The notes under the pieces were generated by a model. The model was not told where the DNA came from. It did no database searches and saw only the letters and a list, made by a program, of their open reading frames with translations. The position numbers and the translations under genes are program-made. A stretch of DNA of 63,263 nt from Saprospiraceae bacterium (GTDB taxonomy: Bacteria > Bacteroidota > Bacteroidia > Chitinophagales > Saprospiraceae): the NCBI GenBank assembly GCA_043721685.1, contig JAYSQG010000007.1:1-63263 (forward strand), given 5' to 3'. Each line of letters begins with the position of its first letter. Position 1 is the first letter of the stretch. Positions 616 to 63,218 of this stretch are shown here, piece by piece.

Positions 616-833
616 GTGACTTTATACCATTCTTTGGCTATCCTAAAATCAATTTTTGATTAATTTTTTGTGCAACTATGGCATTAAGCCCTCTACCACT
701 ATATTATTATGATGACTAATAAAAAACATCAAATTCATTACTTTGGATTTATTGCATCTCCCTTTTTTCTATTTTGAGATACGAATACTGAGGGGGGATT
801 CAATCCAAACCTATATCATCCATACCTTTTTCC

Positions 834-841
834 TACCTTTG
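834..841 (+). promoter_or_regulatory. candidate -7 box TACCTTTG upstream of pepD
   Basis: Exact TAnnTTTG match 32 nt upstream of the ATG at 874. Confidence 0.45.
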
Positions 842-873
842 CACCCTCAATAATCTAATCAATCATAAAAGAA

Positions 874-2337
874 ATGAACGAAGTCATCAGACAATTAGAA
901 CCCACCGCCTTATGGAACCATTTTGCGGATTTAAACGCCGTACCACGTCCATCCAAAAAAGAAGAACGGGTCATCCAATTTATCAAATCGTTTGGCGAAG
1001 CCTTAAAACTGCCCACAACGGTTGATGCGATTGGCAATGTCATTATCAAAAAGCCCGCAACAAAGGGTATGGAATCAAAGGAAACGGTCGTATTGCAAAG
1101 CCATTTGGATATGGTGCATCAAAAGAATGCAGACACGACTTTTGATTTTGACAAACAAGGCATTGACATGTATGTGGACGGTGATTGGGTAAAAGCCAAA
1201 GGCACAACGCTTGGCGCAGACAACGGCATTGGTGTGGCGACGATTATGGCGCTTTTAGCATCAACCGATATTCCGCACCCTGCTTTGGAGGCATTGTTTA
1301 CCATTGATGAAGAGACAGGTATGACGGGTGCATTGGCATTTGAAGGCGGTTTGCTCGATGGAAATATCATGCTCAATTTGGATACCGAAGAGGACAACGA
1401 ACTGACAATCGGTTGTGCAGGCGGTATTGATGTTACGGCAACAGGAACATACCCCTCAGTAAAAACGACAAAAGCAGCCGCTTTTCGCCTTAAAATAAAG
1501 GGTTTAACAGGCGGTCACTCAGGTATGGACATCCACAAAGGACGTGGCAATGCCAATAAATTGATGAATCGCTGCTTATTGATACTCGTTCAAGATGCCG
1601 CCGTTGAGGTCGCAACCATTGAAGGCGGCAGTTTGCGCAATGCCATTCCTCGTGAATCGGTAGCGGATATTGTGGTTTCTGACAACCAAACAGCTCAAGT
1701 AAAACAAGCCATTGAGCAATATCAAAGCATTTTACAAGCAGAATACGCGACAACTGACCCCAATATCCATATCTCAATTGAAGCCATTGACACACCAACA
1801 CATGTCCTGTCGTCTGATTTCACCTACAAACTTTTAAGAGCCATTTATGCGTGTCCAAACGGCATTTACCGCATGAGTTCAGACATTGCGGGTTTGGTAC
1901 AAACGTCTAATAATGTCGCTCGTGTTGTGGTCAAAGAAGGTCATTATGCTATTTTATGCTTGACTCGTAGTTCAGTTGACTCTGAAAAGACGGACTTACA
2001 AATGGCTATTACATCGGCTTTCGACCTATTGGGTGCAGAGGTGACTTATGGCGGTGCATACCCCGGTTGGGCACCCAAACCGTCATCGCCTATTGTCAAA
2101 TTGATGAGCGAATTATATGTGGAACGTTACAACGAAAAGCCTTTAGTCAGTGCTTGTCATGCAGGTTTAGAGTGCGGCATATTGGGCACTCATTATCCAG
2201 ATATGGAGATGATTTCGTTTGGACCTAATATCCACGGCGCACACTCGCCTGATGAACGGGTGCAAATTAGTTCAGTACAGAAATTTTGGGGCTTTTTCTT
2301 GGAAACGTTGGTGCGGATTCCCCCCAACGAAGCGTAG
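874..2337 (+). CDS. pepD: aminoacyl-histidine (Xaa-His) dipeptidase, M20 family
   Basis: 487 aa. The N-terminus LWNHFADLNAVPRPSKKE, the HLDMV motif and the FTIDEETGMTGA metal-ligand block are typical PepD. Confidence 0.9.
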   Translation: MNEVIRQLEPTALWNHFADLNAVPRPSKKEERVIQFIKSFGEALKLPTTVDAIGNVIIKKPATKGMESKETVVLQSHLDMVHQKNADTTFDFDKQGIDMYVDGDWVKAKGTTLGADNGIGVATIMALLASTDIPHPALEALFTIDEETGMTGALAFEGGLLDGNIMLNLDTEEDNELTIGCAGGIDVTATGTYPSVKTTKAAAFRLKIKGLTGGHSGMDIHKGRGNANKLMNRCLLILVQDAAVEVATIEGGSLRNAIPRESVADIVVSDNQTAQVKQAIEQYQSILQAEYATTDPNIHISIEAIDTPTHVLSSDFTYKLLRAIYACPNGIYRMSSDIAGLVQTSNNVARVVVKEGHYAILCLTRSSVDSEKTDLQMAITSAFDLLGAEVTYGGAYPGWAPKPSSPIVKLMSELYVERYNEKPLVSACHAGLECGILGTHYPDMEMISFGPNIHGAHSPDERVQISSVQKFWGFFLETLVRIPPNEA

Positions 2338-2444: not shown

Positions 2445-3281
2445 ATGAAATATAGAATCCTCTGCTTATTTTTTATGAGTGTACTCGTGCAAGGAAAAGC
2501 ACAAACGAGCGCAAACGAAGAGTCAACGGATAACCGATTGGATAGCCTCGAATCAGAGGCTAAAACCCATGCGTTTATCGAAATCAATGGCAGTTATGTG
2601 TCTTCTGTTGCGTATTATGGACGTACTGAGGGGATCAATCAATACGGATTGTCACCGATGATAACAGGACATTTAGGCAAAGGGTGGTCATTGAGTTATG
2701 GAGGCAATATTTGGTCGGCAGCACAACCCCGTTATGCTTTTTCGACAATTGGCATCAACAAAGATTTTAACATGGGTGCTTCCGGCGAGGGTACTATTGG
2801 TTACAGTCGGTGGTTGTCTCACACCAGCGATCCGAGTCAAAAAAGCGATTATACAGGCTCTATTGACTTGGATACGCACTGGAATATAGGCGACTTTACA
2901 TTAGGCAACTATGCATCAGTGCTTCTCGGCGGGAGTAGTGCCTTTTTTTTAGAACCATCTATTGACTATCAAATATCCAATCGTTTTGGTCGTCAACGCC
3001 TTTTTACATGGACAATTAATCCATCTATAACGGCAACCTTAGGTAATGATGTCGTCACACGTGTCGCCATCAAAAAGTTGAAAAACATCAATAAACTTAG
3101 GGGAAAAACAACTTTTGGTTTATTGAATTACGATGCTGCTGTAGATGCTACGCTAACGTATAGGCATACCGATCTTTCGTTTGGGTATCATTACAATATC
3201 CCTCAACATACGGTTGCCCCCAATCCCACCAGTCCTTTTAGCTACGTGGAAATCTCTTTGAGTCAATGGTTTGGGTTGTGA
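2445..3281 (+). CDS. hypothetical secreted, possibly outer-membrane beta-barrel protein
   Basis: 278 aa with signal peptide MKYRILCLFFMSVLVQGKAQ and alternating aromatic/Gly-rich beta-strand-like composition. No family recognised. Confidence 0.5.
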   Translation: MKYRILCLFFMSVLVQGKAQTSANEESTDNRLDSLESEAKTHAFIEINGSYVSSVAYYGRTEGINQYGLSPMITGHLGKGWSLSYGGNIWSAAQPRYAFSTIGINKDFNMGASGEGTIGYSRWLSHTSDPSQKSDYTGSIDLDTHWNIGDFTLGNYASVLLGGSSAFFLEPSIDYQISNRFGRQRLFTWTINPSITATLGNDVVTRVAIKKLKNINKLRGKTTFGLLNYDAAVDATLTYRHTDLSFGYHYNIPQHTVAPNPTSPFSYVEISLSQWFGL

Positions 3282-3406
3282 TGGACTGATGTCCCTTTTT
3301 AGGGGGCTTATACTGAGGGGGGCATTTTTTTTAAAAAATTATCACCAATGTGAAGTTAGCGAGGTGTCATAACAACGTTTTGTTGTTTTTAAAACGCCTT
3401 AAAGTG

Positions 3407-3847
3407 TCATTTTTTAGGCCTTTTCCCATTCTTGTTTTTAGTCATAACTGCTGTTGCCGATATTTCGACATGTCCATTACGTGGCAATGCCGCAACTTGA
3501 ATACAAGTACGGGTCGGAAAACGTGTGGTGAAATAGGTGCGATAAACGGCATTCAAGCGGTCATAATCATTCATGTCTTTAAGGTAAATAATGACGCTGA
3601 CAACATCATCGAAAGTCAAGCTTTTATCGGTCAATACATCTTTGATGTTTTGCATGGATTGATGCACCTCTGTCTCAAATGTTTCGTCCATGAGTTTACC
3701 ATCCTTAGTCCCTAAATGACCAGAGATAAAAAGAAAACCATTCGCTTCAATCGCTTTTGAGTAAGGTACTGAGGGGGTCGTTGTTTGACCTAAAAGGCAT
3801 GTAGATAAAGCCATGAAGAGGCATAAACTTAGATAGACCGTTTTCAT
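3407..3847 (-). CDS. RidA/YjgF/UK114 family protein with signal peptide
   Basis: 146 aa. The core GFLFISGHLG ... TRTCIQVAALPRNGHVEISA is characteristic of the family. Confidence 0.85.
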   Translation of the reverse strand: MKTVYLSLCLFMALSTCLLGQTTTPSVPYSKAIEANGFLFISGHLGTKDGKLMDETFETEVHQSMQNIKDVLTDKSLTFDDVVSVIIYLKDMNDYDRLNAVYRTYFTTRFPTRTCIQVAALPRNGHVEISATAVMTKNKNGKRPKK

Positions 3848-4565: not shown

Positions 4566-4738
4566 GCGTTTTATTTGATAATTGGTAGTGTTAATTTTAG
4601 GATTTTGAACCATTAACATAACGCATAACACCCCTCAGTATAAAGTCCATAGACGTAAAACATTGTTAAAAGTCGCAGCATTGACACAAGTTTTACAATA
4701 CAAAAGAATACGTGTGTGAATTCAGTTGACTATAAAAC

Positions 4739-4827: not shown

Positions 4828-6444
4828 TTACCGTTTTCTTTTCTTATTCTTCCGAGTATTGACATCTGCTTCAGTTAGCGTACATACAAAGCCGTTTTCA
4901 GTCATTTTCCAAGAACGGATAGTGCTGTCATAACAATAGTCGTCGTTATCATCATCGTCGTCTCTGTCAATAGAATGAATGACACCCGTTGTGTTTTTGT
5001 TATATCTAATAACTTTACCATCAGGCACTTTGAGCGTTAAATCAACGCTTTGTCCCCGCCATTTAGTCCCTTTTGGTATCCGAAATGATTCACCAACTGT
5101 CAAAACATTGCCTGATAGGGATGGGGTGTATTGGATGCTTTTTGCAAACCGTTGGGCTTCATCAGAGGAAGAACCTTGTGACATAAGATTACTAACCAAC
5201 TCAAATTTACCATTTTCGCTGCGCTCAATACGCATATTGACATCAAAATTGACAAGGTACTCGTCAGACACATAGAGGTCGCCGAAGTGGATGCCGCCAT
5301 TTGCCTTGTTCAAAGCCACTGCAATGTCCAGTGTGTCAATATTAGAAATATTTAATTCCTGTGTGTTGTCATAGTGATACGTAAAGTTTTTAGCCATCGA
5401 GCCACCAATCGAAATAAGGGCGAAGAAATTAATAGCTAAAAACGTCCATAAACCACCGACTATGCCGTATCCAGCCTCCCGCTTATACACAAGGCGGCGA
5501 ATCGCTAAAATCAATAACGCCGAAATAGAAGCCATTATCGCAAAGGCATTGAAGCCTGCCCATGTCGTTTTCCACCCTTCATCGGTGATATAACCTAATA
5601 TTGGAGACCCCATACTGGCGGCAATGGTCAAGCCAAACCATGATATAAGCATAAAAATAACCAAAACAATCGCTATTAAGATACCGAAAACACGACCCAC
5701 GCCCCCCAATCCTGATAATAAGGCTTTGAGTACATTGCCAACATTGGTTACAATTTGCTGTACTTGATGTTGAAAACGCTCTTGATTCTCTGGTTTGCCA
5801 AACTCATTGACCTTTTCAGAGAACTTCTCGAAACTGGTTTCAACGGTTTTCGCAATGTTATTGACATCAATAGGCTGCCCCTGCATAGCTAAACGGTCGG
5901 CAGTCGTCTTTGCTGACGGCAAAACTGCCCACAAAATGACGTAAAGGATAAAACCTGAGCCACCGAAGAAAAACAAGACTGCCCAGGCAATGCGTAACCA
6001 CACCACTTCAATGCCAAAATACGCTGCCAAACCCGAACAAACACCACCGATCATCTTATGCGCATCATCGCGGAAAAGGCGTTTACCTGTTTGGAAAGGC
6101 GTGCCGCCTGTCGACGAACTTGATTTTTTAGACCCCTCAGTATTTCCACTATCAGAAGCCTGCGATGCTGTTTCGTCAAGGGATTCTGCACCGAAGTCTT
6201 CGGGTTTACCCATGACACTGACGGCATTTTTGACATCTTGTTGCGTCACGATGCCCCGTTTGCCCATGCCCTCTTTGATGAGTTCGGCTAAACGAGCTTC
6301 AATGTCGTTCATGATTTCATCATACCCTTCCGAAGCTCGAAAGTGGTTATGAAGCGATTGTAAATAGTTTTCTAACATTCGGTAGGCTTCGTCGTCAATC
6401 GTAAACGGCAAACCTCCGAGGTTGATATTGAGTACTTTATTCAT
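4828..6444 (-). CDS. PspC domain-containing membrane protein
   Basis: 538 aa. It carries the PspC domain (KMIGGVCSGLAAYFGIEVVWLRIAWAVLFF) followed by several TM helices. It sits immediately downstream of a PadR regulator, a common pairing. Confidence 0.85.
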   Translation of the reverse strand: MNKVLNINLGGLPFTIDDEAYRMLENYLQSLHNHFRASEGYDEIMNDIEARLAELIKEGMGKRGIVTQQDVKNAVSVMGKPEDFGAESLDETASQASDSGNTEGSKKSSSSTGGTPFQTGKRLFRDDAHKMIGGVCSGLAAYFGIEVVWLRIAWAVLFFFGGSGFILYVILWAVLPSAKTTADRLAMQGQPIDVNNIAKTVETSFEKFSEKVNEFGKPENQERFQHQVQQIVTNVGNVLKALLSGLGGVGRVFGILIAIVLVIFMLISWFGLTIAASMGSPILGYITDEGWKTTWAGFNAFAIMASISALLILAIRRLVYKREAGYGIVGGLWTFLAINFFALISIGGSMAKNFTYHYDNTQELNISNIDTLDIAVALNKANGGIHFGDLYVSDEYLVNFDVNMRIERSENGKFELVSNLMSQGSSSDEAQRFAKSIQYTPSLSGNVLTVGESFRIPKGTKWRGQSVDLTLKVPDGKVIRYNKNTTGVIHSIDRDDDDDNDDYCYDSTIRSWKMTENGFVCTLTEADVNTRKNKKRKR

Positions 6445-7404: not shown

Positions 7405-7408
7405 TATT

Positions 7409-7850: not shown

Positions 7851-10800
7851 ATGCCCGATTTCAATAAAAATTTCATACAAACCCTCGCGTCTCTCAATGC
7901 GCAACAACGTGTGGCTGTTGAACACATTGACGGACCGACCCTCGTTATCGCTGGTCCGGGAACGGGCAAAACGCATATCCTTGCCGCACGTATCGGGCAG
8001 ATTTTGACCGTTACCGATACGCAGCCTTATAATATATTGTGTCTGACCTTTACCGATGCAGGTGTACAAGCGATGCGTGAACGTCTGATGTCGCTAATTG
8101 GACCTGCAGCACACAAGGTGCATATCAGCACTTTTCACTCGTTTTGCAACCGTGTGATTCAAGACAATCTCGATTTGTTTGGGCGACAAGACCTCACGCA
8201 GCTTGATGAATTAGAACGTCGTCAAATCATTCGTCAATTGCTCGACGAATTGCCGCATGAACATGCGCTCAAACGGGGGCGAGGTTCAGACGTTTATTTT
8301 TATGAAAAACACCTTGCCGACCTTTTCAAATTGATGAAAACCGAAGCATGGACCCCTCAGTATATCAGCCGAAAAGTAGATGATTGGTTAGAGTATCTGC
8401 CACAAAACCCTGATTTTCAATACAAAATCAATAAAAAAGGGCTGTTTTCAAAAGGTGATTTAAAAACTGAAACCATTGCCGATGAAGTCGAAAAAATGGA
8501 AAAACTCAAAGCGGCGGCGCAACTCTATTACCGTTTTGAAGCCCTCAAAGCCGCTCCAAACCGCTACGATTTTGACGATATGGTGCTGTGGGTGATTGAT
8601 GCGTTCGATAGATTTCCGTTTTTACTGAGGGGGTATCAAGAGCAATTTTTATACTTTTTGGTAGATGAATTTCAAGACACAAACGGCTCACAAAACCGCA
8701 TTTTGAGTCAACTCATTGGCTTTTGGGAGCAACCCAATATTTTTATTGTCGGAGACGACGACCAAGCGATTTATGAATTTCAAGGCGCGAGGCTTAAAAG
8801 TTTGGTTGATTTTTATGAGACCTATAAAAAAGATGTAAAGGTTGTCGTCTTAAAAGACAATTATCGTTCATCTCAAAACATTCTCGATTCAGCACGTAAT
8901 GTCATTGAAAACAACGCATTACGTATTTTGAATAATATCCAAGGTTTAAGTTTAGAAAAAAACCTCATTGCAAAAGGCAGTGTTTCGGAATCGAAAATAG
9001 TTCCTCAAATTATTGAATATCCAAACCGTACCCATGAAGTTATCGACATTGTTCAACAAATCGAAGCCTTAAACAATTCTGATACCCCCCTCCCGACTGC
9101 TTCGGGACAGGTCAAAACAACAGCAATAATTTATGCCCGACATCGCCAAATCGAGCCACTTATTGCACTTTTTGATAAACGAGGTGTGCCTTATACCGTT
9201 CGTCGTGCGCTCAATGTTTTAGACGATTCTTTGATTCAAAATTTAAGGCTTTTGCTTACTTATATCGCTCTGGAAAGTCGGCAACCGTTTAGTGGTGAAC
9301 ATTTGTTGTTCAAAATTCTGAATATGCGTTTTTTAGAAATTCTGCAACAGGATGTTTTGAGATTGACGACCTATTTAGTTAAGAAAAATCCTACTAATGT
9401 CATTGCGAGGAACGAAGCAACCGAGGGGGACGCTGAAATAACGTTTGAAGAAAATAGCAACGTTAAAATGACTTGGCGTGAAACAATCGCTCAATTACCG
9501 CGCATAAAAATTTTAGATAAAAATAAAATCACAACTTTTTCGACGCATCTCGAATCATGGATTTCGGCAGTTGGCAACGACCCTTTGCCCGTTTTGATTG
9601 AACATATTCTGAATCAAAGTGGCTTGTTGTCGTGGGTTTTGAAAGAAGAAAACAAAACAGAATACACGCAAATTATTTACACTCTTTTTGATTTTGTCAA
9701 AAATGAAACCGCTAAAAGACCCCGTTTGACCCTTGCAGATTTCTTGAAAACGTTGGATTTGATGGATGCTAACAATATTCGTTTAGAATTTATCAAAAAC
9801 ACGGTTGCCAAAGACGGCAGTAATCCTGTTGTTTTGACAACCGCACATTCTGCAAAAGGCTTAGAATTTGACCGTGTTTTTATTGTTGATGCGGTAAAAA
9901 CGGAATGGGAGGAAGCCCGAAGTGGCAGCGTTTATCGTTTCAAACTGCCTGAATCGCTTACTTTTACAGCAGAAGCTGATGCGACAGAAGCAAGGCGACG
10001 GCTGTTTTATGTGGCGACTACAAGGGCAAAAGAGCATTTGACCGTCAGTTATGCTCGAACAGATGGACGTGGGAAAGGCTTGATGCAAACCCAATTTTTA
10101 GATGAAATGAATGCTCCTGCCCTTGAGAAAAGGCAGCTTGACGATGATTCTGTTTTAGACAGTCAAATAGCTTTATTGACTGAGGGGGTCGAAATTGAAA
10201 CAGATTTGCTTGAAAAAGCCTTTGTTAAAAACGTTTTGAAGGATTTTCAACTCTCAATTTCCGCGCTGAATGCTTATTTAGATTGTCCGTTGAGTTTTTA
10301 TTTTTCTTATATCCTAAAAGTGCCTTCGCAACCGAGCGCGTATTTTCAATATGGTGAAGCGGTGCATTTTGCTTTGCGCAAACTGTTTGGTGAGATGTTG
10401 AGGTCAAAAGAAAAACAATTTCCAAACAGTGATGAATTTGTGAACTATTTTGAGACAGATTTGCAGCGTCGCCGCCCGTTTTTTGACAACGCCGATTTTG
10501 AAAGGCGTTTAGAAACAGGTGTCACTAATTTGAGATTGTACTATAACCAATTCGTGCATAAATTCCCAAAAACTGTGGTTGTTGAAAAAACACTTGTTGC
10601 AGAGATTGAAGGTGTGCCTGTACGTGGTATTTTAGATAAAATCGAATATCGGGCAGACGGTTCGGTGCATATTGTGGATTATAAAACTGGGAAACAAGCC
10701 GATGAAAAACTGCGTCGTCCTTCAACTCGAAACCCTTTGGGTGGTGATTATTGGCGGCAATTGGTTTTTTATAAATTATTGTACGAAAATTTCAGAGCCA

Positions 10801-11060
10801 ATTTGATACGTGTCACTTCGGGCGAAATCAGTTATGTCGAAGCCGATGTGCGCGGTAATTTTAAAACAAAAACGTTTGATTTTGAGCCAAAAGACAGCCA
10901 AATACTGAGGGGTCTCATTTCGGAATCATGGGAACGGATTCAAGCACAGGATTTCAAGGGTTGTGGTAAAAAAACGTGTGCGTGGTGCAATTTTATTAAA
11001 AACAATAAGCCATTAGGCTCTTTTAGAATTGAGAGAAATGAATTTTTAGATGACCAATAA
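7851..11060 (+). CDS. UvrD/PcrA-type superfamily-1 helicase fused to a C-terminal 4-Cys PD-(D/E)XK (AddB/Cas4-like) nuclease
   Basis: The start was moved to ATG 7851 (MPDFNKNF...), because the track ORF starts at an upstream TTG. Helicase motifs present are Walker A AGPGTGKTH, DEFQDTN, and VLTTAHSAKGLEFD ... LFYVATTRAK. The C-terminus carries CPLSFYF ... GILDKIEY ... IVDYKTGK ... CGKKTCAWC. Confidence 0.85.
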   Translation: MPDFNKNFIQTLASLNAQQRVAVEHIDGPTLVIAGPGTGKTHILAARIGQILTVTDTQPYNILCLTFTDAGVQAMRERLMSLIGPAAHKVHISTFHSFCNRVIQDNLDLFGRQDLTQLDELERRQIIRQLLDELPHEHALKRGRGSDVYFYEKHLADLFKLMKTEAWTPQYISRKVDDWLEYLPQNPDFQYKINKKGLFSKGDLKTETIADEVEKMEKLKAAAQLYYRFEALKAAPNRYDFDDMVLWVIDAFDRFPFLLRGYQEQFLYFLVDEFQDTNGSQNRILSQLIGFWEQPNIFIVGDDDQAIYEFQGARLKSLVDFYETYKKDVKVVVLKDNYRSSQNILDSARNVIENNALRILNNIQGLSLEKNLIAKGSVSESKIVPQIIEYPNRTHEVIDIVQQIEALNNSDTPLPTASGQVKTTAIIYARHRQIEPLIALFDKRGVPYTVRRALNVLDDSLIQNLRLLLTYIALESRQPFSGEHLLFKILNMRFLEILQQDVLRLTTYLVKKNPTNVIARNEATEGDAEITFEENSNVKMTWRETIAQLPRIKILDKNKITTFSTHLESWISAVGNDPLPVLIEHILNQSGLLSWVLKEENKTEYTQIIYTLFDFVKNETAKRPRLTLADFLKTLDLMDANNIRLEFIKNTVAKDGSNPVVLTTAHSAKGLEFDRVFIVDAVKTEWEEARSGSVYRFKLPESLTFTAEADATEARRRLFYVATTRAKEHLTVSYARTDGRGKGLMQTQFLDEMNAPALEKRQLDDDSVLDSQIALLTEGVEIETDLLEKAFVKNVLKDFQLSISALNAYLDCPLSFYFSYILKVPSQPSAYFQYGEAVHFALRKLFGEMLRSKEKQFPNSDEFVNYFETDLQRRRPFFDNADFERRLETGVTNLRLYYNQFVHKFPKTVVVEKTLVAEIEGVPVRGILDKIEYRADGSVHIVDYKTGKQADEKLRRPSTRNPLGGDYWRQLVFYKLLYENFRANLIRVTSGEISYVEADVRGNFKTKTFDFEPKDSQILRGLISESWERIQAQDFKGCGKKTCAWCNFIKNNKPLGSFRIERNEFLDDQ

Positions 11061-16914: not shown

Positions 16915-16994
16915 AATTCAACAATATAAATAGGTAAAATACTGAGGGGCATAAAATTAATAGAAATCAACTTTCAGAAAACTTATCGAATATG

Positions 16995-43380: not shown

Positions 43381-43482
43381 CGCCGTAAAACCCTAATAAA
43401 CCCTGTAAATGTACTGAGGGGGGGCAATTTTCCACCTTTCTAATTCTATATTTTATAAAAAAATTAAAACAAAAATTCATTT

Positions 43483-50670: not shown

Positions 50671-50735
50671 GGCAAAAGACACCCCTCAGTATCGAGCAAT
50701 CGTTGGGGTGTTTTTTGCCTTTTTTATTTTTTTTA
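50671..50735 (+). terminator. intrinsic terminator whose 5' arm contains a CCCCTCAGTA copy
   Basis: A 15-bp stem (ggcaaaagacacccc / ggggtgttttttgcc, one mismatch) followed by a T-rich run. Confidence 0.7.
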
Positions 50736-51358: not shown

Positions 51359-51502
51359 ATGCCCAAAACGGTGTTTGCACCCTTGCAATTGCCAATGTTT
51401 TTAAGAATTGAAGCCTTTGAGTGAAGTAAATATTGTAATTTTACCCTTTCTGGACTCGTTGATACTGAGGGGTTAAAAAACAAAGGAAATTTGACAAGAA
51501 TT

Positions 51503-54663: not shown

Positions 54664-54821
54664 CCCTGAAAATCGAAGATTCCATAGGAAGGGGGTGTTT
54701 TGGGGTGATAATGAAGTAAGTAAAGCAAATCGTAAATATTAGTAATTTCATATTTTAAGGTTCCATACTGAGGGGTGTTTCCTTACTGGAATTCTCAATT
54801 TTTAAATTTTCAAATAAAAAA

Positions 54822-55790
54822 ATGTTTCAGTCAATTTGGGATGATGTCAAACGGGAGTTTCAATATGGCAATATGGTCACACGGATTATAGTTGTCAATA
54901 TTGCTATATGGATTGTTGTCAACATTGCTAAACTCATCTTGCGTATTCCGACCGAAGATGCGGCTATGTATGATGATTTTCTGCGTTTTTTTTCAATGTC
55001 GCCGAATTGGATGTTTATATTAATGCACCCTTGGGTGCTCATAACGTCAATTTTTTTACATGAAAGTTTTGGGCATATCCTTTGGAATATGTTGACTTTC
55101 TACTGGTTTGGGCGTATTGTCGGCGATTTATTGGGCAATCATCGGGTCTTGCCGCTGTATTTACTCGGCGGTTTAGCTGGTGGGGCGGTCTATTTTATTG
55201 CTGCACAATTTCATGTATTGGGTTTGGGTTTACCGAGCGAAATGGTTCTAGGTGCATCGGCAGCTGTGATGGCGATGGTCGCCTGTGCGGCTTATATTGC
55301 TCCTGATTATATATTTAACTTATTACTTATCGGGCCTGTTAGGTTGAAATATATTGCCTTTGTTTTGTTTTTTCTCGACCTCATCAGCATTGCAGATAGG
55401 TCAAATACTGGGGGGCATTTAGCGCATTTGGGCGGTGCGGCTTTCGGTTTGTTTTTTGCGGCGCAACTACGAGAAGGTACAGATTTGGGCAAGCCGATTA
55501 ATCGCTTCATTGATTTTTTAATTAATTTGTTTAATAGTCGGCCAAAGTCAAAGTTTACTTATCAACGTGGCGGTGGTGGACAAAAAGCCTATTCAGGTCA
55601 GCAGAAATCACAGCCCAAAAAGACTACACAAGGTAGTCAAACCTCCGATTTAGCTAAAAAAACAACTGATGCCGGTGTTTCCGACGAGCAGGCACGCCTC
55701 GATGCGATTCTCGATAAAATCAAACAAGATGGTTATGACAGTTTAACCAAAGAAGAAAAAGAATTCCTTTTCAAAGCCAGTCAAAAATAA
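54822..55790 (+). CDS. rhomboid family intramembrane serine protease with a basic C-terminal tail
   Basis: 322 aa with HESFGHILWNM, GASAAVMA and AHLGGAAFG. Confidence 0.85.
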   Translation: MFQSIWDDVKREFQYGNMVTRIIVVNIAIWIVVNIAKLILRIPTEDAAMYDDFLRFFSMSPNWMFILMHPWVLITSIFLHESFGHILWNMLTFYWFGRIVGDLLGNHRVLPLYLLGGLAGGAVYFIAAQFHVLGLGLPSEMVLGASAAVMAMVACAAYIAPDYIFNLLLIGPVRLKYIAFVLFFLDLISIADRSNTGGHLAHLGGAAFGLFFAAQLREGTDLGKPINRFIDFLINLFNSRPKSKFTYQRGGGGQKAYSGQQKSQPKKTTQGSQTSDLAKKTTDAGVSDEQARLDAILDKIKQDGYDSLTKEEKEFLFKASQK

Positions 55791-55905: not shown

Positions 55906-56982
55906 ATGGTTCGATTTGTAAGAAAAATTAATCTCTGGATTATATTATTGACGTTATTGGCGTACATCGCGCCCTATATTAGCCCTGCGCAAGTGTCATT
56001 GTTTATGTTTATGGGCGTCGCTTTTCCATGGCTTTTGATTGTCAATTTTCTTTTTGTGGGTATTTGGGCATTGAGTCGTTACCGATATTGGTGGTATTCG
56101 GCAGCCGTTGTAGTTGTTGGATGGTCGCATTTGACGAGTGTTTTTGGTGTTCATTTCAGCCAGGCTCAAAGCCTAAATACTGAGGGGGGTAAAAAATCTG
56201 TTGGTTTGCGCGTGATGAGTTACAATGTTCATGGTCTGATTACGCCAGGCGCAAAAAACATAATTGCTGCACGCCTTGAATTGAGTCGTTTTTTAGAAAA
56301 GCAAAATGCAGATGTCATCTGCTTTCAAGAATATTTATTTCAATGGGGTGAGAATTATGATAAACAAATGCTTGATGACATACCTTTTCTGAAAAAATAC
56401 CCTTACTCAATACGTATTAAAGGCAACGATTTGGCTATTTTTTCCCGTTTTCCTATACTTAATTCTGGTATTTTGCTTAATCGTAACGATTCAAATGGCT
56501 GTACCTATGCCGATATTTCAGTACGTGGTCAAAATGTGCGTTTTTATTCCTTACAACTTCGGTCGAATGTTGTAAGCGATATTGCAGATGATTTGGCAAA
56601 ACGTAAAGATATTACTAACGATGACTCTTGGTTTAACGTAGGACGTATGTTAACTCGTTTTCGACGGTATGGTATTATTCGTGCAAAGGATTCAGAGGCA
56701 GTTAAAAAACATATAAAGGAAAGCCCAAATCCTGTCATTCTCTGTGGCGACTTCAACGACATTCCTGTTTCGTATTCCTACAAAACCCTTTCAGACGGCT
56801 TTATTGATGCTTTTCAAGAGACAGGACGAGGTGTAGGAACAACTTACGCAGGGCATATACCTGCTTTGCGGATTGACTATATTTTGACCGACCCTCGTTT
56901 CAAACCGCTTAATTGTTTCATCTTTCGCGTCCGTCATTCCGACCATTATCCTGTTGTGAGTGATATAGTCATTGGTCATTAG
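55906..56982 (+). CDS. membrane-anchored endonuclease/exonuclease/phosphatase (EEP) family protein
   Basis: 358 aa with N-terminal TM helices, then the EEP blocks VMSYNV, CFQE, GDFN and SDHYP. Confidence 0.8.
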   Translation: MVRFVRKINLWIILLTLLAYIAPYISPAQVSLFMFMGVAFPWLLIVNFLFVGIWALSRYRYWWYSAAVVVVGWSHLTSVFGVHFSQAQSLNTEGGKKSVGLRVMSYNVHGLITPGAKNIIAARLELSRFLEKQNADVICFQEYLFQWGENYDKQMLDDIPFLKKYPYSIRIKGNDLAIFSRFPILNSGILLNRNDSNGCTYADISVRGQNVRFYSLQLRSNVVSDIADDLAKRKDITNDDSWFNVGRMLTRFRRYGIIRAKDSEAVKKHIKESPNPVILCGDFNDIPVSYSYKTLSDGFIDAFQETGRGVGTTYAGHIPALRIDYILTDPRFKPLNCFIFRVRHSDHYPVVSDIVIGH

Positions 56983-57056
56983 TCTTTTGCCGATTGTTAT
57001 GTCTTCTAACGGCATAAAAAAGGGGATCGAAAATGCCCCCCTCAGTAATCTTATAT

Positions 57057-58083: not shown

Positions 58084-58776
58084 TTATGTTAAATAATTTT
58101 TCATATTTGTAACGTCCTGTTCAATCTGTCCTACAAGTGACTGATAGGTTGCCGCAAAATCCTTTTGCGTTTGTTCCACTTTGACGGTTGACTGCGCGAT
58201 GTCTTCTTTCAATTTTGTTACATCTTGACGATGTTGTGCGATTTCATCGGTCAGTTTTTTAATCTGTTCCGCTTTTTGCTGCATCACCGCTTCGAGGTTT
58301 TCGACTTGCCCTTGTTTATTGCCTACTTGTGCAACACGTTGATTTTCAGCCGCTTGTGAAAATTTTGTGTTCTCGTTTTTTAAAATTTCGAGATAATGTA
58401 AAGCAGAATTGACCAATTTGTTTGGTGTTGCGCCCATCGTCGAAGCCATAGCGAAAGCCGATTTATAACGAGTCGCTTCGTCCATCGGCATATTTGCCAA
58501 ATTTTGAAGCGATTGTTTGAACTCAAAATAATCTAATCCATCTAAGTTCGCAGCTTCCATCGCTCCAAACAAGGCTTGCATAAATTTTTCGTTGACCGTT
58601 CCATCGCCCACAGGAGCCGAAAAGGTCGGTTTTACTGAGGGGGGCATTGTCGTTTTAACATCTTCCTTTGAAGGTGTTTGCGTCTCTTTTTGTACCGTTT
58701 TTACAGGTTGATTGACCGCAGCGTTTGGATCTGCTTGAATAAAAACGCCTTTAAATTTTGACCATAAATCATTCAT
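58084..58776 (-). CDS. hypothetical coiled-coil protein
   Basis: 230 aa with an amphipathic N-terminus, a Pro/Thr linker and a long C-terminal coiled coil. No family recognised. Confidence 0.5.
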   Translation of the reverse strand: MNDLWSKFKGVFIQADPNAAVNQPVKTVQKETQTPSKEDVKTTMPPSVKPTFSAPVGDGTVNEKFMQALFGAMEAANLDGLDYFEFKQSLQNLANMPMDEATRYKSAFAMASTMGATPNKLVNSALHYLEILKNENTKFSQAAENQRVAQVGNKQGQVENLEAVMQQKAEQIKKLTDEIAQHRQDVTKLKEDIAQSTVKVEQTQKDFAATYQSLVGQIEQDVTNMKNYLT

Positions 58777-59001: not shown

Positions 59002-60177
59002 TTATAGCAATTTTGAAAACTCCGTACTGCGTGCAGCCCAGGAGTTTTGCGAAGCGAAATGCTTAAGCCGCGCTGAATCGGTGTTTGAATAGTCTCCTTG
59101 AGCTAATTGCAAAAAGGCATCATCATCATCGGCAATGTGAACGACGGATTCAAAATCGCTTAAATCTGCAAAACGAGTTGACACGACGGGTTTTCCGGCT
59201 GCTAAATATTCATTTATTTTTAAAGGATAAATACCTTTTGTCAACTCATTTTTGACAAAAGGAATCAAACAGACATCAAATTTTTGCACCCATGCGGGTA
59301 AGGTTGCAGGCGGTTGCGAACCGACAATGATCACATTTGGAAAGGCTGACAACCGCTTTTCGTAAGCCGATTGGGTCACACGTCCAACAAAAACGTAATT
59401 ATACTGAGGGGTCGTTGAAATGAGTTTTTCGAGCAAATCGTAGTCCATCCTTTCATCAACCGAACCGAGATAACCGATGATCTTTTTACCTTCTTCGAGT
59501 TGAACAATAGGCAGAACATGTGGTTTCTGACTGAAAAGCTCGTAGTTAACGCCATTTTTAATCAAAAAACAATTTGGATTCTCCTTGGATTTTTTCTCTA
59601 ATAAACCCTGTGACGTGACAATGACTGAATCTACTTTTTTCAAAAAATCATCTTCTAATCGCTTGCCATGCCGACTTGCCCACCTTGCGGATCCAATATC
59701 GTCGTAGCAATAATAAATAAGTTTTGAGCTATTTAATTTGCCTGCCAACGAATTTCCGAAGCAAGGATTGAAAGCATTGACGACCGTCGGTGATGTCATA
59801 CCGGTGGTTTTCATGGCTTTTAGAATGGTTCTTTTTATGAAAAAAACATTTATACGATTAACTGCATCGTAAACTTTAGGGTTTTTTAAAAAATTAATCG
59901 GAAGGATAGGGGGTAAAGTCAAAAGGTGGATTTCAGCCCCATTTTCAAGGGGCATCACACTCAATCGAGGTTTTACACCCGACAAACGTTTCCACGATAT
60001 ATAGCCTTTGCCAAACCAACTTAAGATAAAATCCTTCCAAGTAAAAGCGTAATTAACATACAAGATACGATGACCGAGCAGCGCCAGCTCGGTCATTAGT
60101 TGTACCGTTGACTTCAAATAATTGCCTCGCCAAGCAGGAAAAGCAACGCAAACAATGTCTTTTTTTTGTTTAATCAT
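59002..60177 (-). CDS. GT-B fold glycosyltransferase (GT4-like)
   Basis: 391 aa. The C-terminal half carries an E-x7-E-like region (PLKINEYLAAGKPVVST). Confidence 0.75.
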   Translation of the reverse strand: MIKQKKDIVCVAFPAWRGNYLKSTVQLMTELALLGHRILYVNYAFTWKDFILSWFGKGYISWKRLSGVKPRLSVMPLENGAEIHLLTLPPILPINFLKNPKVYDAVNRINVFFIKRTILKAMKTTGMTSPTVVNAFNPCFGNSLAGKLNSSKLIYYCYDDIGSARWASRHGKRLEDDFLKKVDSVIVTSQGLLEKKSKENPNCFLIKNGVNYELFSQKPHVLPIVQLEEGKKIIGYLGSVDERMDYDLLEKLISTTPQYNYVFVGRVTQSAYEKRLSAFPNVIIVGSQPPATLPAWVQKFDVCLIPFVKNELTKGIYPLKINEYLAAGKPVVSTRFADLSDFESVVHIADDDDAFLQLAQGDYSNTDSARLKHFASQNSWAARSTEFSKLL

Positions 60178-60961
60178 TTTTTTCGAGTATGAGAATTTCT
60201 TTAGAAATCAAAAAACTTAAAGGAAAAACACGTGGATTGATACCCCTCAGTATCGGCAGCCTTTTGAGCAAGCTGTGGCTCAAACGTGTATTGATTTTAA
60301 AACCTGTTTTTTCTAAAATGGGTGAAAAATTGCTGTGCGTCAAGCGATTTAAGCCATTATACGCTTCGATTAAGTCACTTTCATGCTCACCGCTGATTTT
60401 TTCATTCTTTTTTTCAATCCATTTCAACAATAATTTTTGAGGCAAAAACTGGCACCACGGCAGACCCGTAACGCGGACAACGTGAGACGCATAAGGGCTT
60501 TGCCACGGCGGATAGCTGACGAAAATGCGTCCTTTTGGGCTTAACAGGTGATGAAATTCTGCAAAAATGTTTTCTAAAATGGAAAAAGGAATGTGTTCAG
60601 CGACATCATTCATAAAAATAGCGTCAAAAGTCCCTTCATACTGAGGGGGTAATTTGTCAGTCGTAATGTCGCGTTTTTCAAATGAGACATTCGAGACACC
60701 ATGCTTTTGTTTGAGGTGATTGGCAACGTTGACGTGAAAACCGTCAATGTCAACACCTTTGACTGAACATGTCCAGTTTTTGGCATACCAAAGACTCATA
60801 CCACCCATGCCTGAACCGAAGTCGAGGACACGTTTGCCGTCTAAATTGAAGTGTTTTCGGATGAAATCTTTGTCCACTTGCAAATGGCGTGCGGAGTCGT
60901 TTAGGAAATTGTTTTCTGCATAAGACAGACTATTGTCCATTAGTTCAACTGATAAGGTCAT
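60170..60961 (-). CDS. class I SAM-dependent methyltransferase
   Basis: 263 aa with motif I VLDFGSGMGG and the post-I acidic residue. It overlaps the downstream GT gene by 8 nt. Confidence 0.8.
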   Translation of the reverse strand: MTLSVELMDNSLSYAENNFLNDSARHLQVDKDFIRKHFNLDGKRVLDFGSGMGGMSLWYAKNWTCSVKGVDIDGFHVNVANHLKQKHGVSNVSFEKRDITTDKLPPQYEGTFDAIFMNDVAEHIPFSILENIFAEFHHLLSPKGRIFVSYPPWQSPYASHVVRVTGLPWCQFLPQKLLLKWIEKKNEKISGEHESDLIEAYNGLNRLTHSNFSPILEKTGFKINTRLSHSLLKRLPILRGINPRVFPLSFLISKEILILEKND

Positions 60962-61004
60962 GTGCTAAGATTTTGATTATTAAATAGTTATGATTTATAT
61001 TATT

Positions 61005-63218
61005 TTAATTTTCAGCCCAGTTTCGTTTCATCAAACGCTTAAGTTTACGGCGGAACGGACTGCGTTGGCGTGGAATTTCACCAATACTATCTTCCAGCAA
61101 ATCAATACGCACCGCATTTAGAACAAGGCGACAAGGGCGTTTTAGGAATTTGTTGATGGTTTCAATCGCTCGTTTGTCTGCGGGCAACCACGAGCGATTG
61201 GCACGACAAACGAGCAAGGCTACATCAATTTGGCTCAACAATCGAGCAGGATAATTGCCACCAATAAGTGACGGAATCTCCGTGATGATATAGTTGAAGT
61301 GATGCCAAACAATGTCTTCCCCACCGAGTAAATCGGCTTCATCTTCCTTGTCAATGAGTGAAAAATCAACTTTATAAAACTTATTGTCTTCGTGGCTTTG
61401 TTCGTCTTCAAGCGGCTTATCATCTGGGCGAATGTATAACACCCTGTGACCATAAGTGCGCAACATAGCAACAGCTTGTTTGCCAACAGAAGTTTTCCCA
61501 TCTCCATCGTTGGTACTCAAAATGACAATGCGCGCGAGGACGGTGCGTGTATGGAGTTGCAAATCAATTTTCAAGTGCTGCAAAAGTTGTTCAATGCCCC
61601 TTGAAACGACCATATCAAACCTAATAATGGGGTGTTTTGCCCAGTTTTTAGGTAGTTTTGGGAGTGCCGTGAACATCTGCAAACTAGTTGTTTCTCCTGC
61701 ATTTTCGGGAGTTCGCAGTGTTGCATCGAGCATTTCGAGGGCAATTAACAGAGCCAATGGCAAAACAAGACCGACGACAACCGATAAAATGAGGAGTGTC
61801 GAGCGTTTAGAGGGGTTGGGTTTGTCAGGATAATGCGGCGGGTCAACGATGCGCACTTTGCCTGACATCATCATATTGAGTTTGTGTATACGTACCACGT
61901 TTGTACTGTGCAGGTTTTCGAGATAGGCTTTTTCAGCCACGTCGATTTCGCGCTCTAAACGCTTTATTTTTGAACCCCAAGGCGCAAATTTGTTATAAAT
62001 ACGGTCAAATTCTGCTTTTCTTTCTCTAAAAACGGTCATACGTGCCAAGCCTTGTTCAACATCAATCCATTGATTGAGCCACTGTGCAAGGATGTTTTTA
62101 ACCTCAACACCTTCCGGCGTGCGCTCGACACCGAAAATGGATTCGGCACTTCGGCGCAAATCCGCTTTAAGCTTTTCTGCTTGGTTTTGAAGTAGTCTGA
62201 CGGTTTTTGTATCTACTTGTTTTGTACTGTCGTCAAGCGAGCCAATCTCAAGGTTTGCTAAACGCGAAGAAATGGAGGAAAGGGACTGCCTTTGCCGCGC
62301 AATGTTTTCATTGATTTTTGGTAGGCTACCCCGATTGCCCAACTGTGCCTCGAGGTTGCGACGCGCCGAGTCAGCCGCCGCGAGGTGCATCATTTCTTTG
62401 AAATACAATTCATCTAATTCTTCTTTTTTAGAGGCAATGAAGCGGGTTTGCTCGTAGTAGTTGATGATTTTGTTGTCCACCATAAAACTGAGCATATTGT
62501 CTTCCTTTCCACTAAGGGATGCGGCGGATTCATTGGTCGTTTTTTCAAAGAAACTCAATACATCGCCTGACTGATTTTCTTTTGTCATACGGTACTTATC
62601 TGTGAAAACTTTAACTAGAACCTCAATTGTATTGCGGCAAATGGAGGGGTCGGTTGACGTATAAGCAACCTTTATTTGGTCGGAGTTTCCATCCCTTTTA
62701 ATGACTAATTTTTCGATATGGTCAACACCAAACAACGAATGACCGCCTTCCAATATCGATTTGATGACATTGGGTGTATCCGTATCACGCCAGGCTTCTA
62801 TTTTTTGTTTAGTCGCTTCAAAAGACTGATAATCAACAACTTGGGCGCGAATGTCTTCTGGTATTTCTTTTTTCAATTCGTTGAAAGCAGCCTCCCCGAT
62901 GAATTCTACTGAGGGGGATTTCTGCATTAAACATTGCGCCAAGAGATACGCACCAACTTCTAATTGGGTCTCGCGGCTCTTGGCGATGCCCAGAATATTT
63001 TCCATTTCGTTGTTGGTGAAGCCGTAGTCAATACGCCCACCATTCGACGATTCGATGTTGTAACCTGAGACCAAACCTGTGTTTAAAAGAGAATTTGATT
63101 CGTATTCTTTGGGCAGATTTTTGGTCATGTGAAAAGTCACACCTCCTGCCAAACCAGCTGAAAGTATGAGCAAATAACGATTTCTAAGTATTAGTCGGAG
63201 TAAAGTAATTAGGTTCAT
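61005..63218 (-). CDS. polysaccharide chain-length determinant / tyrosine-autokinase-like exopolysaccharide transport protein
   Basis: 737 aa with an N-terminal TM helix, a Wzz-like coiled periplasmic region, a second TM helix and a C-terminal P-loop-like domain (STNDGDGKTS). Confidence 0.75.
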   Translation of the reverse strand: MNLITLLRLILRNRYLLILSAGLAGGVTFHMTKNLPKEYESNSLLNTGLVSGYNIESSNGGRIDYGFTNNEMENILGIAKSRETQLEVGAYLLAQCLMQKSPSVEFIGEAAFNELKKEIPEDIRAQVVDYQSFEATKQKIEAWRDTDTPNVIKSILEGGHSLFGVDHIEKLVIKRDGNSDQIKVAYTSTDPSICRNTIEVLVKVFTDKYRMTKENQSGDVLSFFEKTTNESAASLSGKEDNMLSFMVDNKIINYYEQTRFIASKKEELDELYFKEMMHLAAADSARRNLEAQLGNRGSLPKINENIARQRQSLSSISSRLANLEIGSLDDSTKQVDTKTVRLLQNQAEKLKADLRRSAESIFGVERTPEGVEVKNILAQWLNQWIDVEQGLARMTVFRERKAEFDRIYNKFAPWGSKIKRLEREIDVAEKAYLENLHSTNVVRIHKLNMMMSGKVRIVDPPHYPDKPNPSKRSTLLILSVVVGLVLPLALLIALEMLDATLRTPENAGETTSLQMFTALPKLPKNWAKHPIIRFDMVVSRGIEQLLQHLKIDLQLHTRTVLARIVILSTNDGDGKTSVGKQAVAMLRTYGHRVLYIRPDDKPLEDEQSHEDNKFYKVDFSLIDKEDEADLLGGEDIVWHHFNYIITEIPSLIGGNYPARLLSQIDVALLVCRANRSWLPADKRAIETINKFLKRPCRLVLNAVRIDLLEDSIGEIPRQRSPFRRKLKRLMKRNWAEN

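Follow-up and report, generated by a model that had tools for sequence, protein, structure and literature searches.

A hyper-abundant DNA word with helically phased flanks in a clade of uncultured Saprospiraceae, a candidate DNA-uptake-enhancing sequence

The window analysed here, a stretch of 63,263 bp from contig JAYSQG010000007.1, is ordinary core chromosome of an uncultured member of the Saprospiraceae (Bacteroidota), and the subject of this report is a short word, TACTGAGGGG, that recurs along its whole length. The 58 gene calls, made from open reading frames (ORFs) and covering 86% of the window, include a dUTPase, a dipeptidase, a UvrD/AddA-like helicase, the glyoxylate shunt, an extracytoplasmic function (ECF) sigma factor and an anti-sigma factor, FabH, CysS, Lgt, MetK, aromatic amino-acid synthesis, MutL and polysaccharide export. 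Exact protein look-up matched the organism in metagenome assemblies only, and Rfam and tRNA scans of the window gave no matches. Together with ~250 kb of related DNA, from which individual stretches are cited by number (L004 and so on), the window makes up the sample on which our analysis is based.

An exact search of both strands found 50 copies of TACTGAGGGG in the window, 28 on the plus strand and 22 on the minus strand, which amounts to 0.79 copies per kb, about one per 1.3 kb, or 0.8% of the DNA. The word ranks first by far among the 10-mers of the window, the next unrelated entries being A/T runs with 11 copies. Dinucleotide-preserving shuffles (n=100) contained a mean of 0.02 copies and at most 1, corresponding to an excess of ~2500-fold. 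For a codon-aware null, synonymous codons were shuffled within each ORF while proteins and per-gene codon usage were retained; 500 such shuffles yielded 0.45 +/- 0.66 copies on average, with a maximum of 4, compared with the 36 copies observed in ORFs, and the constraint therefore acts on the DNA word. The same distinction between a DNA word and a peptide had been drawn in a sequence-only reading of this stretch made before our analysis, and it is upheld by the codon null, by the use of five reading frames and by the tripeptides that the word inflates in the codon-aware analysis, TEG fourfold (17 vs 4.2 expected) and PQY 6.6-fold (6 vs 0.9). The sequence-only reading had counted 49 exact copies by eye; it overlooked the minus-strand copy at 1452 and gave 39133 for the copy at 39134, its other exact coordinates being correct. 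Four of its five one-mismatch copies (10178, 13553, 28666 and 40431) are confirmed, within a total that rises from 5 to 11, while the fifth, assigned to 55416, lies at 55406 (TACTGGGGGG), and what it took for an insertion variant at 34183 is really TACTGAAGGGGG at 34173. The exact form thus outnumbers all 30 single-base variants together by 50:11, or ~5:1. TACTGAGGGG is asymmetric, differing from its own reverse complement, and so is not a palindrome of the HIP1 (highly iterated palindrome) type. The information content of the motif, ~22 bits, is about twice the 11.3 bits required by the density of sites, an excess that would fit a driven word better than an ordinary binding site.

Thirty-six of the 50 exact copies (72%) lie in ORFs and 14 lie between genes, where 13.6% of the DNA is non-coding (P=0.006), confirming the roughly twofold intergenic enrichment estimated beforehand. 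Within ORFs the word is read as TEG (12 copies), PSV (8), PLS (7), PQY (6) or LRG (3) and never in the TAC-TGA frame, again as had been noted from the letters alone. Sense and antisense copies stand at 15:21, which fits the 2:3 ratio that would follow from free orientation and the loss of one sense frame (P=0.87). The run of G in the word is 4 to 7 long, and the earlier impression that it is longer in intergenic copies did not hold (mean 5.07 vs 4.86, P=0.36). Copies are spaced more evenly than at random, the coefficient of variation of the gaps being 0.60 vs 0.98 in simulations (P<1e-4) and 0.31-0.86 in 14 related loci, and the single large gap in the window (27963-32019) holds three decayed copies, including one that is split (30751-30780). 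In CysS, MutL, an M28 peptidase and an Exo_endo_phos protein, the word occupies variable or indel-prone segments between conserved blocks. Isocitrate lyase (17089-18369), S-adenosylmethionine synthetase (43483-44745) and other conserved biosynthetic genes, each over 1 kb, have no exact copy, which is consistent with the word being tolerated in permissive protein segments only. There are two small modules of toxin-antitoxin-like appearance (7072-7755 and 26471-27144), one a Gp49/HigB-like ORF with an overlapping partner and one a PIN-domain ORF with an upstream 83-aa ORF; neither has a copy, and the spacing of the word around them is not unusual.

An association of the word with terminators was considered and rejected for the window, since a terminator-like hairpin accompanies only 1 of the 14 intergenic copies (57038, with a T-run); inverted pairs of the word number zero there. 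Among 315 copies overall there are 6 close inverted pairs, ~4% of copies being found in such pairs. Those at L256:65-95, L256:2796-2826, L017:7911-7945 and L103:3802-3827 form long hairpins, some followed by T-runs as in L017 and L256, and resemble the inverted-repeat terminators that Neisseria builds from its DNA uptake sequence (DUS).

Strand use in the window (28:22) is compatible with 50:50 (P=0.48), and a 75% skew is rejected (P=0.003), so that the strong replication-strand skew that would have redirected the interpretation is not seen in the window, the only DNA on which this check was run; nor was an orientation switch or a replication-type GC-skew signal seen along its 63 kb. This balance bears on a reading of the word as a Chi-like signal for an AddAB/RecBCD-type helicase-nuclease, or for another nuclease defence, that would mark self DNA and switch degradation to recombination, with phages gaining the word to escape. 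The window does encode a 1119-aa UvrD/AddA-like helicase with a C-terminal nuclease-like region, in whose gene three exact copies and one near copy are found, and phages carry the word at host density, as described below. Chi words, however, are 5-8 nt long, over-represented a few-fold and read on single-stranded DNA. The present word is longer, its ~2500-fold excess and the exact conservation of its sites fall outside the Chi range, its strand balance is not that of a 75% skew, and a signal read on single-stranded DNA would not produce the helically phased duplex flanks described below. We therefore consider a Chi-like role very unlikely.

To place the word phylogenetically, we scanned 185,579 species genomes with CysS and obtained 80 loci, all from Saprospiraceae or related Bacteroidota and mostly from metagenome-assembled genomes (MAGs). 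Nineteen of these loci, from 18 MAGs, are word-rich, with 0.46-1.2 copies per kb, 38-43% GC and a CysS 72-97% identical to that of the window; copies are thus not confined to the region in which they were noticed. Sampling series of streams and glaciers supplied many of the 18 MAGs, and a salar supplied one. The other 61 loci, in which CysS identity is <=72%, hold 0-1 copy each in up to 21 kb and include Lewinella, Phaeodactylibacter, Flavilitoribacter, Haliscomenobacter, Portibacter and Aureispira. The word belongs to a clade of uncultured, mostly cold-freshwater Saprospiraceae. No dispersed word of their own, or dialect, was found in the sister Saprospiraceae, whose top 9-mers are tandem or low-complexity repeats. 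One outgroup Saprospiraceae MAG (L053, 16 kb) has eight dispersed copies of AAATTTTGC on both strands, which may be part of the Bacteroidota -7 promoter motif (TAnnTTTG) and not a word of the present kind. A metagenome scan with AAAATACTGAGGGGKY returned mostly chance matches, ~5 of the 120 listed loci being word-rich. L256, the stretch with two of the inverted pairs, has a GC content of only 32.6%, so that the word may extend to lower-GC relatives.

At orthologous sites the word is conserved well above its surroundings. Nucleotide identity to L008 is 99% inside the word and 78.2% outside it, with 9 of 10 copies intact vs 0.85 expected; for L007 the figures are 98.9% and 84.9%, with 8 of 9 copies vs 1.8 expected, and L055 keeps 9 of 9 copies vs 3.3 expected. 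Seven species taken together retain 50 of 62 orthologous copies vs ~18 expected, in agreement with the conservation across related genomes that the sequence-only reading had named as a check. The word in the M28 peptidase gene survives even where protein identity has fallen to 58%, and outgroups have unrelated sequence and a one-residue deletion in its place. Interspecies differences at word sites are nearly all single-base decays of an ancestral copy. The closest relative, L004, keeps 9 of 15 window copies vs 7 expected, with four recent single-base decays and one change in G-run length; since these losses are recent decays set against older conservation, they are no argument against constraint. 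Most species have the word at aa 418 of CysS, three have none, and in L013, L069 and L017 it is found instead at aa 361-364, in one orientation or the other. The copies at the two positions are independent gains, and it looks as though density, rather than particular positions, is maintained. Decay also appears in clusters: the window lineage lost four copies within 5 kb (25902, 28666, 29162 and 30751), and L004 lost three in the adjoining 25.1-28.0 kb (window-equivalent 25119-27963), copies elsewhere being almost always intact. A recombined segment, or a local easing of constraint, may be the reason. The 20-bp near-palindromic insert that splits the copy at 30751-30780, TCCGAAGGATTCCTTTGGAA, was found nowhere else in the DNA examined, and the split copy is situated ahead of the FabH ORF or within that ORF's over-extended 5' end.

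The pattern of conservation bears on whether the word could be a functionless by-product of sequence-biased repair or gene conversion, as proposed for HIP1 or very-short-patch repair. HIP1 is an example of a hyper-abundant word for which no uptake role is known, and a process of this sort would affect any resident replicon, phages included. A mutational bias would nevertheless leave unexplained the regular spacing, the phasing of ~55-60 bp of flank and a site conservation of 99% vs 78% with few intermediates, and the word is non-palindromic with at least 10 specified bases, unlike methyltransferase-linked words. We regard such an origin as quite unlikely. Mobile elements, as remnants or targets resembling miniature inverted-repeat transposable elements (MITEs) or repetitive extragenic palindromes (REPs), or an assembly artefact, are scarcely credible sources. 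The copy split by a 20-bp palindromic insertion and a metagenome contig with the word in a 66-bp tandem array could be taken as hints of mobility, yet the flanks contain no conserved unit, 72% of copies lie in frame in housekeeping genes at orthologous positions, and the same pattern recurs in independent assemblies (ENA, Logan, NCBI MAGs of several studies and IMG/VR). The absence of a conserved flank and the in-frame copies in conserved genes at orthologous positions refute the mobile-element and artefact explanations, and agree with the earlier judgement that the word does not form the centre of some longer mobile repeat. The tandem array (L266:380-700) consists of five 66-67-bp units, each with the word, on a contig of 34% GC; most of each unit is conserved, and the array is therefore not a CRISPR (clustered regularly interspaced short palindromic repeats) locus. 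A clade member from the Salar de Ascotan (L031:390-17470) has a second, unrelated dispersed repeat, GCGAGCGAAGCGAGC, mostly as inverted pairs ~80 bp apart (26 arms in 18 kb) with a MITE/REP-like look.

Pooling 142-220 non-redundant copies, we found that the core extends to an A at -1 (66%), a G or T at +10 (96%) and a T after the G-run (74%), and that no flank sequence is conserved beyond these positions. To this extent the sequence-only reading, which found the flanks not conserved, was right. It needs correcting in that the flanks do hold a strong signal: their A/T content rises and falls in register with the word, once per ~10.5 bp, out to ~55-60 bp on either side. The upstream series has a period of 10.66 +/- 0.09 bp, an amplitude of 0.23 and a decay length of 29 bp, with peaks at about -1, -12, -23, -33, -44 and -55. 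Downstream, the period is 10.41 +/- 0.13 bp and the amplitude 0.13, with peaks at about +15, +26, +46 and +57. Power at 10.5 bp reaches 0.18 upstream and 0.044 downstream, 8-fold and 2.3-fold above the maximum of 0.023 in 500 sets of random positions. Between the two series there is a shift of roughly half a helical turn across the core, with A favoured upstream and T downstream. The periodicity is not a general property of any G-rich word, since GGGG, GAGGG, CTGAG and TACTG outside the motif are unphased. Phased A/T flanks with a half-turn offset are the hallmark of a DNA duplex bent or wrapped at this site.

The word is also found in phages. At least 120 stretches of IMG/VR matched one 14-mer form of it, and among the matches listed, 11 word-rich stretches on at least 9 phage contigs carry 3-11 copies each, at 0.5-1.6 per kb. 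Six word-rich contigs (7 stretches) have PHROG-confirmed phage genes with word copies inside them, encoding a terminase large subunit, a portal or minor head protein, a head protease, a baseplate hub, a tape measure, a virion structural protein, a primase-helicase and a ParB-methyltransferase. The host signature recurs around the phage copies, which have the same phased flanks, the A at -1, the G or T at +10 and the T that follows the G-run. DNA methyltransferases are encoded on two word-rich phage contigs (L153:10225-11631 and L123:2451-3437), that of L153 being fused to a ParB-like domain. In the Pasteurellaceae, temperate phages gain the uptake signal sequence (USS) up to the host level and large lytic phages do not (PMC6776037).

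Taken with the flanks, carriage by phages raises the main rival to an uptake function, in which the word would specifically anchor an abundant DNA-bending or DNA-wrapping protein inside the cell, for instance a self-marking factor, an architectural or nucleoid-associated protein, or a topoisomerase or condensin that loads at such sites. Such a protein would read the 12-bp asymmetric core and wrap ~120 bp, its regular sites would be under purifying selection, and phages would need or mimic them. The oscillation of A/T over ~55-60 bp on both sides with its half-turn offset across the core, the regular spacing, the conservation of sites well above background and the presence of the word in structural genes of true phages, at host-like density and with the same flank signature, would all be expected on these grounds. 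On the other hand, we know of no nucleoid protein with an exact 10-12-bp asymmetric word at thousands of copies. Nucleoid proteins bind degenerate sites whose information content roughly matches their frequency, whereas the present motif would carry about twice what is needed. The word is absent from sister Saprospiraceae, so that an essential architectural role would have to be a recent invention, and the same gene holds it at different places and in different orientations depending on the lineage, which fits maintenance of density better. Moreover, phased AT-rich flanks (PMC1626085) and accumulation in phages (PMC6776037) are both published properties of USS. A docking site of this kind is, in our view, unlikely, though it is the competitor to be taken most seriously. 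We give similarly low credence to the bolder proposal that the word, instead of being an uptake signal, provides the address for a DNA-marking system of Bacteroidota that acts across the genome and was not known before. In it, a sequence-specific protein would read one asymmetric 12-bp word per ~1.3 kb and wrap ~120 bp of phased DNA, and every persisting replicon, phages included, would have to carry the word, which would make it a new type of code for self-recognition or chromosome organisation.

We favour the interpretation, with a probability of roughly 0.6, that ATACTGAGGGG(G)T serves this Saprospiraceae clade as a DNA-uptake-enhancing sequence or as a self-recognition word of equivalent function, and it may be the first uptake-signal-like system outside the Proteobacteria. 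The uptake, receptor and drive that we infer would operate as follows. A surface DNA receptor would bind duplex bearing the word, and the helically phased A/T tracts on both sides would ease a sharp bend at it, so that the bent loop could enter an outer-membrane uptake channel. Word-bearing fragments would be preferentially imported and recombined. The molecular drive arising from this bias, perhaps helped by selection for conspecific DNA, would generate new copies and repair damaged ones at any site that tolerates them. Drive of this sort would hold the word at ~1 copy per 1.3 kb, evenly spaced, in either orientation, between genes or in variable parts of proteins and never in the TAC-TGA frame, and resident temperate phages would be drawn to the same density. 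The likeness to uptake sequences proposed in the sequence-only reading is strengthened by the clade-wide conservation with turnover, the phased flanks and the host-level density in phages.

Several points weigh against an uptake function. To our knowledge the clade has no cultured member. No competence, pilus or receptor gene was found in the window or the related loci, which are partial genomes only; a screen of the ORFs of all loci for signatures of DprA, PilB/PilT, prepilin, ComEA, ComF and ComEC gave no credible match, but it relied on crude regular expressions, and absence from it means little. A moderate replication-strand skew, of up to ~65%, is compatible with the 63-kb data. The phages with host-like density may not be temperate. 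The two-sided phasing over ~55-60 bp exceeds that of USS, and a DNA-wrapping protein would account for this signal, and for the carriage by phages, equally well. Finally, the known uptake-word systems depend on minor pilins of type IV pili (bioRxiv 10.1101/2025.10.24.684340).

Sequence-specific uptake is known from two proteobacterial families only (bioRxiv 10.1101/2025.10.24.684340), and there is continuing debate over whether uptake words arise through molecular drive or through selection for conspecific DNA. If the word does serve uptake, evolution would have repeated the experiment independently in another phylum, with a third and unrelated word that has its own phages, its own record of turnover and an unusually large bending signature. 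Natural competence would then be predicted for uncultured glacier-stream Saprospiraceae, the word would provide a simple in-silico host marker for the phages of the clade, and a DNA receptor other than simply ComP or ComN would be indicated. Were the word not an uptake signal, we would be dealing with a genome-wide protein-DNA code of a new type, an even more surprising outcome. New here are the helically phased two-sided flanks, the phage contigs with the word at host-like density and the clade-wide conservation with turnover. All copies in the window are collected in Table 1.

Table 1. Exact, one-mismatch and decayed copies of the word in the window. Exact copies come from exact search; ORF placement follows the ORF-based gene calls.
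Form	Position	Strand	Location, reading and remarks
exact TACTGAGGGG	786..795	+	intergenic
exact TACTGAGGGG	1452..1461	-	ORF 874-2337(+), antisense, YPSV; absent from earlier list
exact TACTGAGGGG	2624..2633	+	ORF 2445-3281(+), sense, RTEG
exact TACTGAGGGG	3311..3320	+	intergenic
exact TACTGAGGGG	3767..3776	+	ORF 3407-3847(-), antisense, TPSV
exact TACTGAGGGG	4631..4640	-	intergenic
exact TACTGAGGGG	6133..6142	-	ORF 4828-6444(-), sense, NTEG
exact TACTGAGGGG	8353..8362	-	ORF 7701-11060(+) (UvrD/AddA-like helicase), antisense, TPQY
exact TACTGAGGGG	8623..8632	+	ORF 7701-11060(+), sense, LLRG
one-mismatch GACTGAGGGG	10178..10187	+	ORF 7701-11060(+), sense, LTEG
exact TACTGAGGGG	10903..10912	+	ORF 7701-11060(+), sense, ILRG
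exact TACTGAGGGG	12507..12516	+	ORF 12184-14115(+), sense, NTEG
one-mismatch TACTGAGGGC	13553..13562	+	ORF 12184-14115(+)
exact TACTGAGGGG	14287..14296	-	ORF 14122-15102(+), antisense, PLSI
exact TACTGAGGGG	14582..14591	-	ORF 14122-15102(+), antisense, PPQY
exact TACTGAGGGG	15009..15018	+	ORF 14122-15102(+), sense, DTEG
exact TACTGAGGGG	16940..16949	+	intergenic
exact TACTGAGGGG	18810..18819	-	ORF 18456-19730(-) (malate synthase), sense, ITEG
one-mismatch TATTGAGGGG	19578..19587	+	ORF 18456-19730(-)
exact TACTGAGGGG	19999..20008	-	intergenic
exact TACTGAGGGG	20891..20900	-	ORF 20464-21408(+), antisense, PPQY; conserved in L055, L012, L008
exact TACTGAGGGG	21973..21982	+	ORF 21616-22143(-), antisense, NPSV
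exact TACTGAGGGG	22411..22420	+	ORF 22178-23272(+), sense, ITEG; conserved in 5 other species
exact TACTGAGGGG	23776..23785	+	ORF 23276-24061(-), antisense, PLSI; conserved to 65% protein identity
exact TACTGAGGGG	25119..25128	+	ORF 24852-26426(-), antisense, TPSV
exact TACTGAGGGG	25505..25514	+	ORF 24852-26426(-), antisense, PLSI
decayed, two mismatches TACTAAGGGA	25902..25911	.	intact orthologue in L004, L055, L007, L012, L008
exact TACTGAGGGG	26431..26440	-	intergenic, 5 bp upstream of ORF 24852-26426
exact TACTGAGGGG	27963..27972	+	ORF 27241-28485(-), antisense, PLSI
one-mismatch TACTGAGGGA, decayed	28666..28675	-	intact in L004, L005
one-mismatch TATTGAGGGG, decayed	29162..29171	-	intact in L004, L055, L007, L012, L008
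split copy TACTGA[TCCGAAGGATTCCTTTGGAA]GGGG, 20-bp near-palindromic insert	30751..30780	-	intact TACTGAGGGG in L004, L055, other relatives
exact TACTGAGGGG	32019..32028	+	M28 peptidase ORF 31519-32541(-), PLSN; conserved in 12 species
exact TACTGAGGGG	32826..32835	-	cysS 32577-34088(-), ITEG at aa 418; conserved in 13 related loci
one-mismatch TACTGAAGGG(GG), decayed	34173..34182	+	intact in L006, L007, L008
exact TACTGAGGGG	34444..34453	+	ORF 34316-34756(+), sense, NTEG
exact TACTGAGGGG	36719..36728	-	ORF 36470-37330(-), sense, FTEG
exact TACTGAGGGG	37574..37583	+	ORF 37400-38050(-), antisense, APSV
exact TACTGAGGGG	39134..39143	+	intergenic
exact TACTGAGGGG	39273..39282	+	intergenic
one-mismatch TACTGACGGG	40059..40068	-	
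one-mismatch GACTGAGGGG	40431..40440	+	
exact TACTGAGGGG	41561..41570	-	ORF 41498-42178(-), sense, FTEG
exact TACTGAGGGG	43412..43421	+	intergenic
exact TACTGAGGGG	45123..45132	-	ORF 44826-45326(-), sense, ITEG
exact TACTGAGGGG	45956..45965	-	intergenic
exact TACTGAGGGG	47433..47442	-	ORF 47299-48477(+), antisense, PPSV
exact TACTGAGGGG	47947..47956	-	ORF 47299-48477(+), antisense, PLSI
exact TACTGAGGGG	48284..48293	-	ORF 47299-48477(+), antisense, PPQY
exact TACTGAGGGG	50682..50691	-	intergenic
exact TACTGAGGGG	51463..51472	+	intergenic, 19 bp upstream of mutL ORF
one-mismatch TACTGAGGAG	52051..52060	-	in mutL
one-mismatch TACTGAGAGG	52852..52861	+	in mutL
exact TACTGAGGGG	53306..53315	-	mutL 51491-53443(+), antisense, PLSI; variable ~4-residue stretch between conserved blocks
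exact TACTGAGGGG	54766..54775	+	intergenic
one-mismatch TACTGGGGGG	55406..55415	+	
exact TACTGAGGGG	56178..56187	+	ORF 55906-56982(+), NTEG, indel-rich linker
exact TACTGAGGGG	57038..57047	-	intergenic; G-run is 5' arm of GGGG...CCCC hairpin, then TTTTTT
exact TACTGAGGGG	58633..58642	+	ORF 58084-58776(-), antisense, PPSV
exact TACTGAGGGG	59402..59411	+	ORF 59002-60177(-), antisense, TPQY
exact TACTGAGGGG	60243..60252	-	ORF 60170-60961(-), sense, ILRG
exact TACTGAGGGG	60639..60648	+	ORF 60170-60961(-), antisense, PPQY
exact TACTGAGGGG	62907..62916	+	ORF 61005-63218(-), antisense, SPSV

Among the word systems already known, HIP1 (GCGATCGC) of cyanobacteria is a hyper-abundant palindromic 8-mer that is linked to methyltransferase sites and whose function is debated. 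Like HIP1, the present word is short and hyper-abundant both in and between genes, but it is an asymmetric 10-12-mer with phased flanks. Chi, KOPS (FtsK orienting polar sequences, which are G-rich) and AIMS (architecture imparting sequences), words of 5-8 nt with a role in chromosome maintenance, are over-represented, with modest enrichment, and strongly co-oriented with replication, from which a word of 10-12 nt with 28:22 strand use and a ~2500-fold excess differs. The REP/MITE class was rejected, as there is no conserved unit beyond the core and 72% of copies lie in ORFs. A search of the accessible literature for the word itself returned primer matches only, and one for uptake sequences in Bacteroidota or Saprospiraceae found nothing relevant, in keeping with the earlier statement that no such word had been described in this phylum; a preprint of October 2025 names uptake words for Neisseriaceae and Pasteurellaceae only, read by the minor pilin ComP in the case of DUS and by the predicted ComN in the case of USS (bioRxiv 10.1101/2025.10.24.684340).

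Both DUS and USS occur at ~1 copy per kb without orientation bias and with spacing more regular than random, and they favour non-coding DNA while having many coding copies and some close inverted pairs; USS has two AT-rich segments about one helical turn apart, and DUS has none (PMC1626085). Uptake words avoid frames that contain stops and occupy permissive regions of genes (bioRxiv 10.1101/2025.10.24.684340). In Neisseria, DUS occurs at ~1 per 0.4-1.1 kb, and genomic islands are DUS-poor (PMC7371117). With the DUS of Neisseriaceae (GCCGTCTGAA and dialects), the present word shares a 10-mer core with a preferred extension, a similar density on both strands, the avoidance of stop-codon frames, a preference for permissive gene regions and occasional inverted-pair terminator hairpins; CTGA is also common to both words, probably by coincidence. 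It differs in that the frequent inverted-repeat terminators of DUS are not encountered here (1 of 14 intergenic copies, ~4% of copies paired), in that DUS has no flanking motif whereas the flanks here are phased, in that DUS has dialects while no dialect of the present word was seen in its sister lineages, and in that DUS has a minor pilin, ComP, as its receptor.

The likeness to the USS of Pasteurellaceae (AAGTGCGGT / ACAAGCGGT) extends further. Each has a short GC-rich core in an AT-rich genome at ~1 copy per kb, with no orientation bias, regular spacing and a preference for non-coding DNA despite many genic copies. Each is common to a family-level clade, stable at orthologous sites and accumulated in phages (co-evolving temperate ones in the case of USS), and both have AT-rich flank segments about one helical turn apart. 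The words themselves are unrelated in sequence and belong to different phyla; the periodicity here is seen over ~55-60 bp on both flanks, with more strength on the 5' one, the exact form outweighs its one-mismatch variants more strongly, and USS has ComN as its predicted receptor. The sequence-only reading had likened the word to DUS and USS rather than to Chi or KOPS, and this resemblance is sustained by density, strand balance, regular spacing, non-coding preference and clade specificity, and further by orthologous stability, permissive protein segments and accumulation in phages. Altogether, the word possesses every feature of DUS and USS that can be examined in sequence, except the frequent terminator pairs of the DUS type, and its architecture is closest to that of the Haemophilus USS, with a larger, two-sided bending signature.

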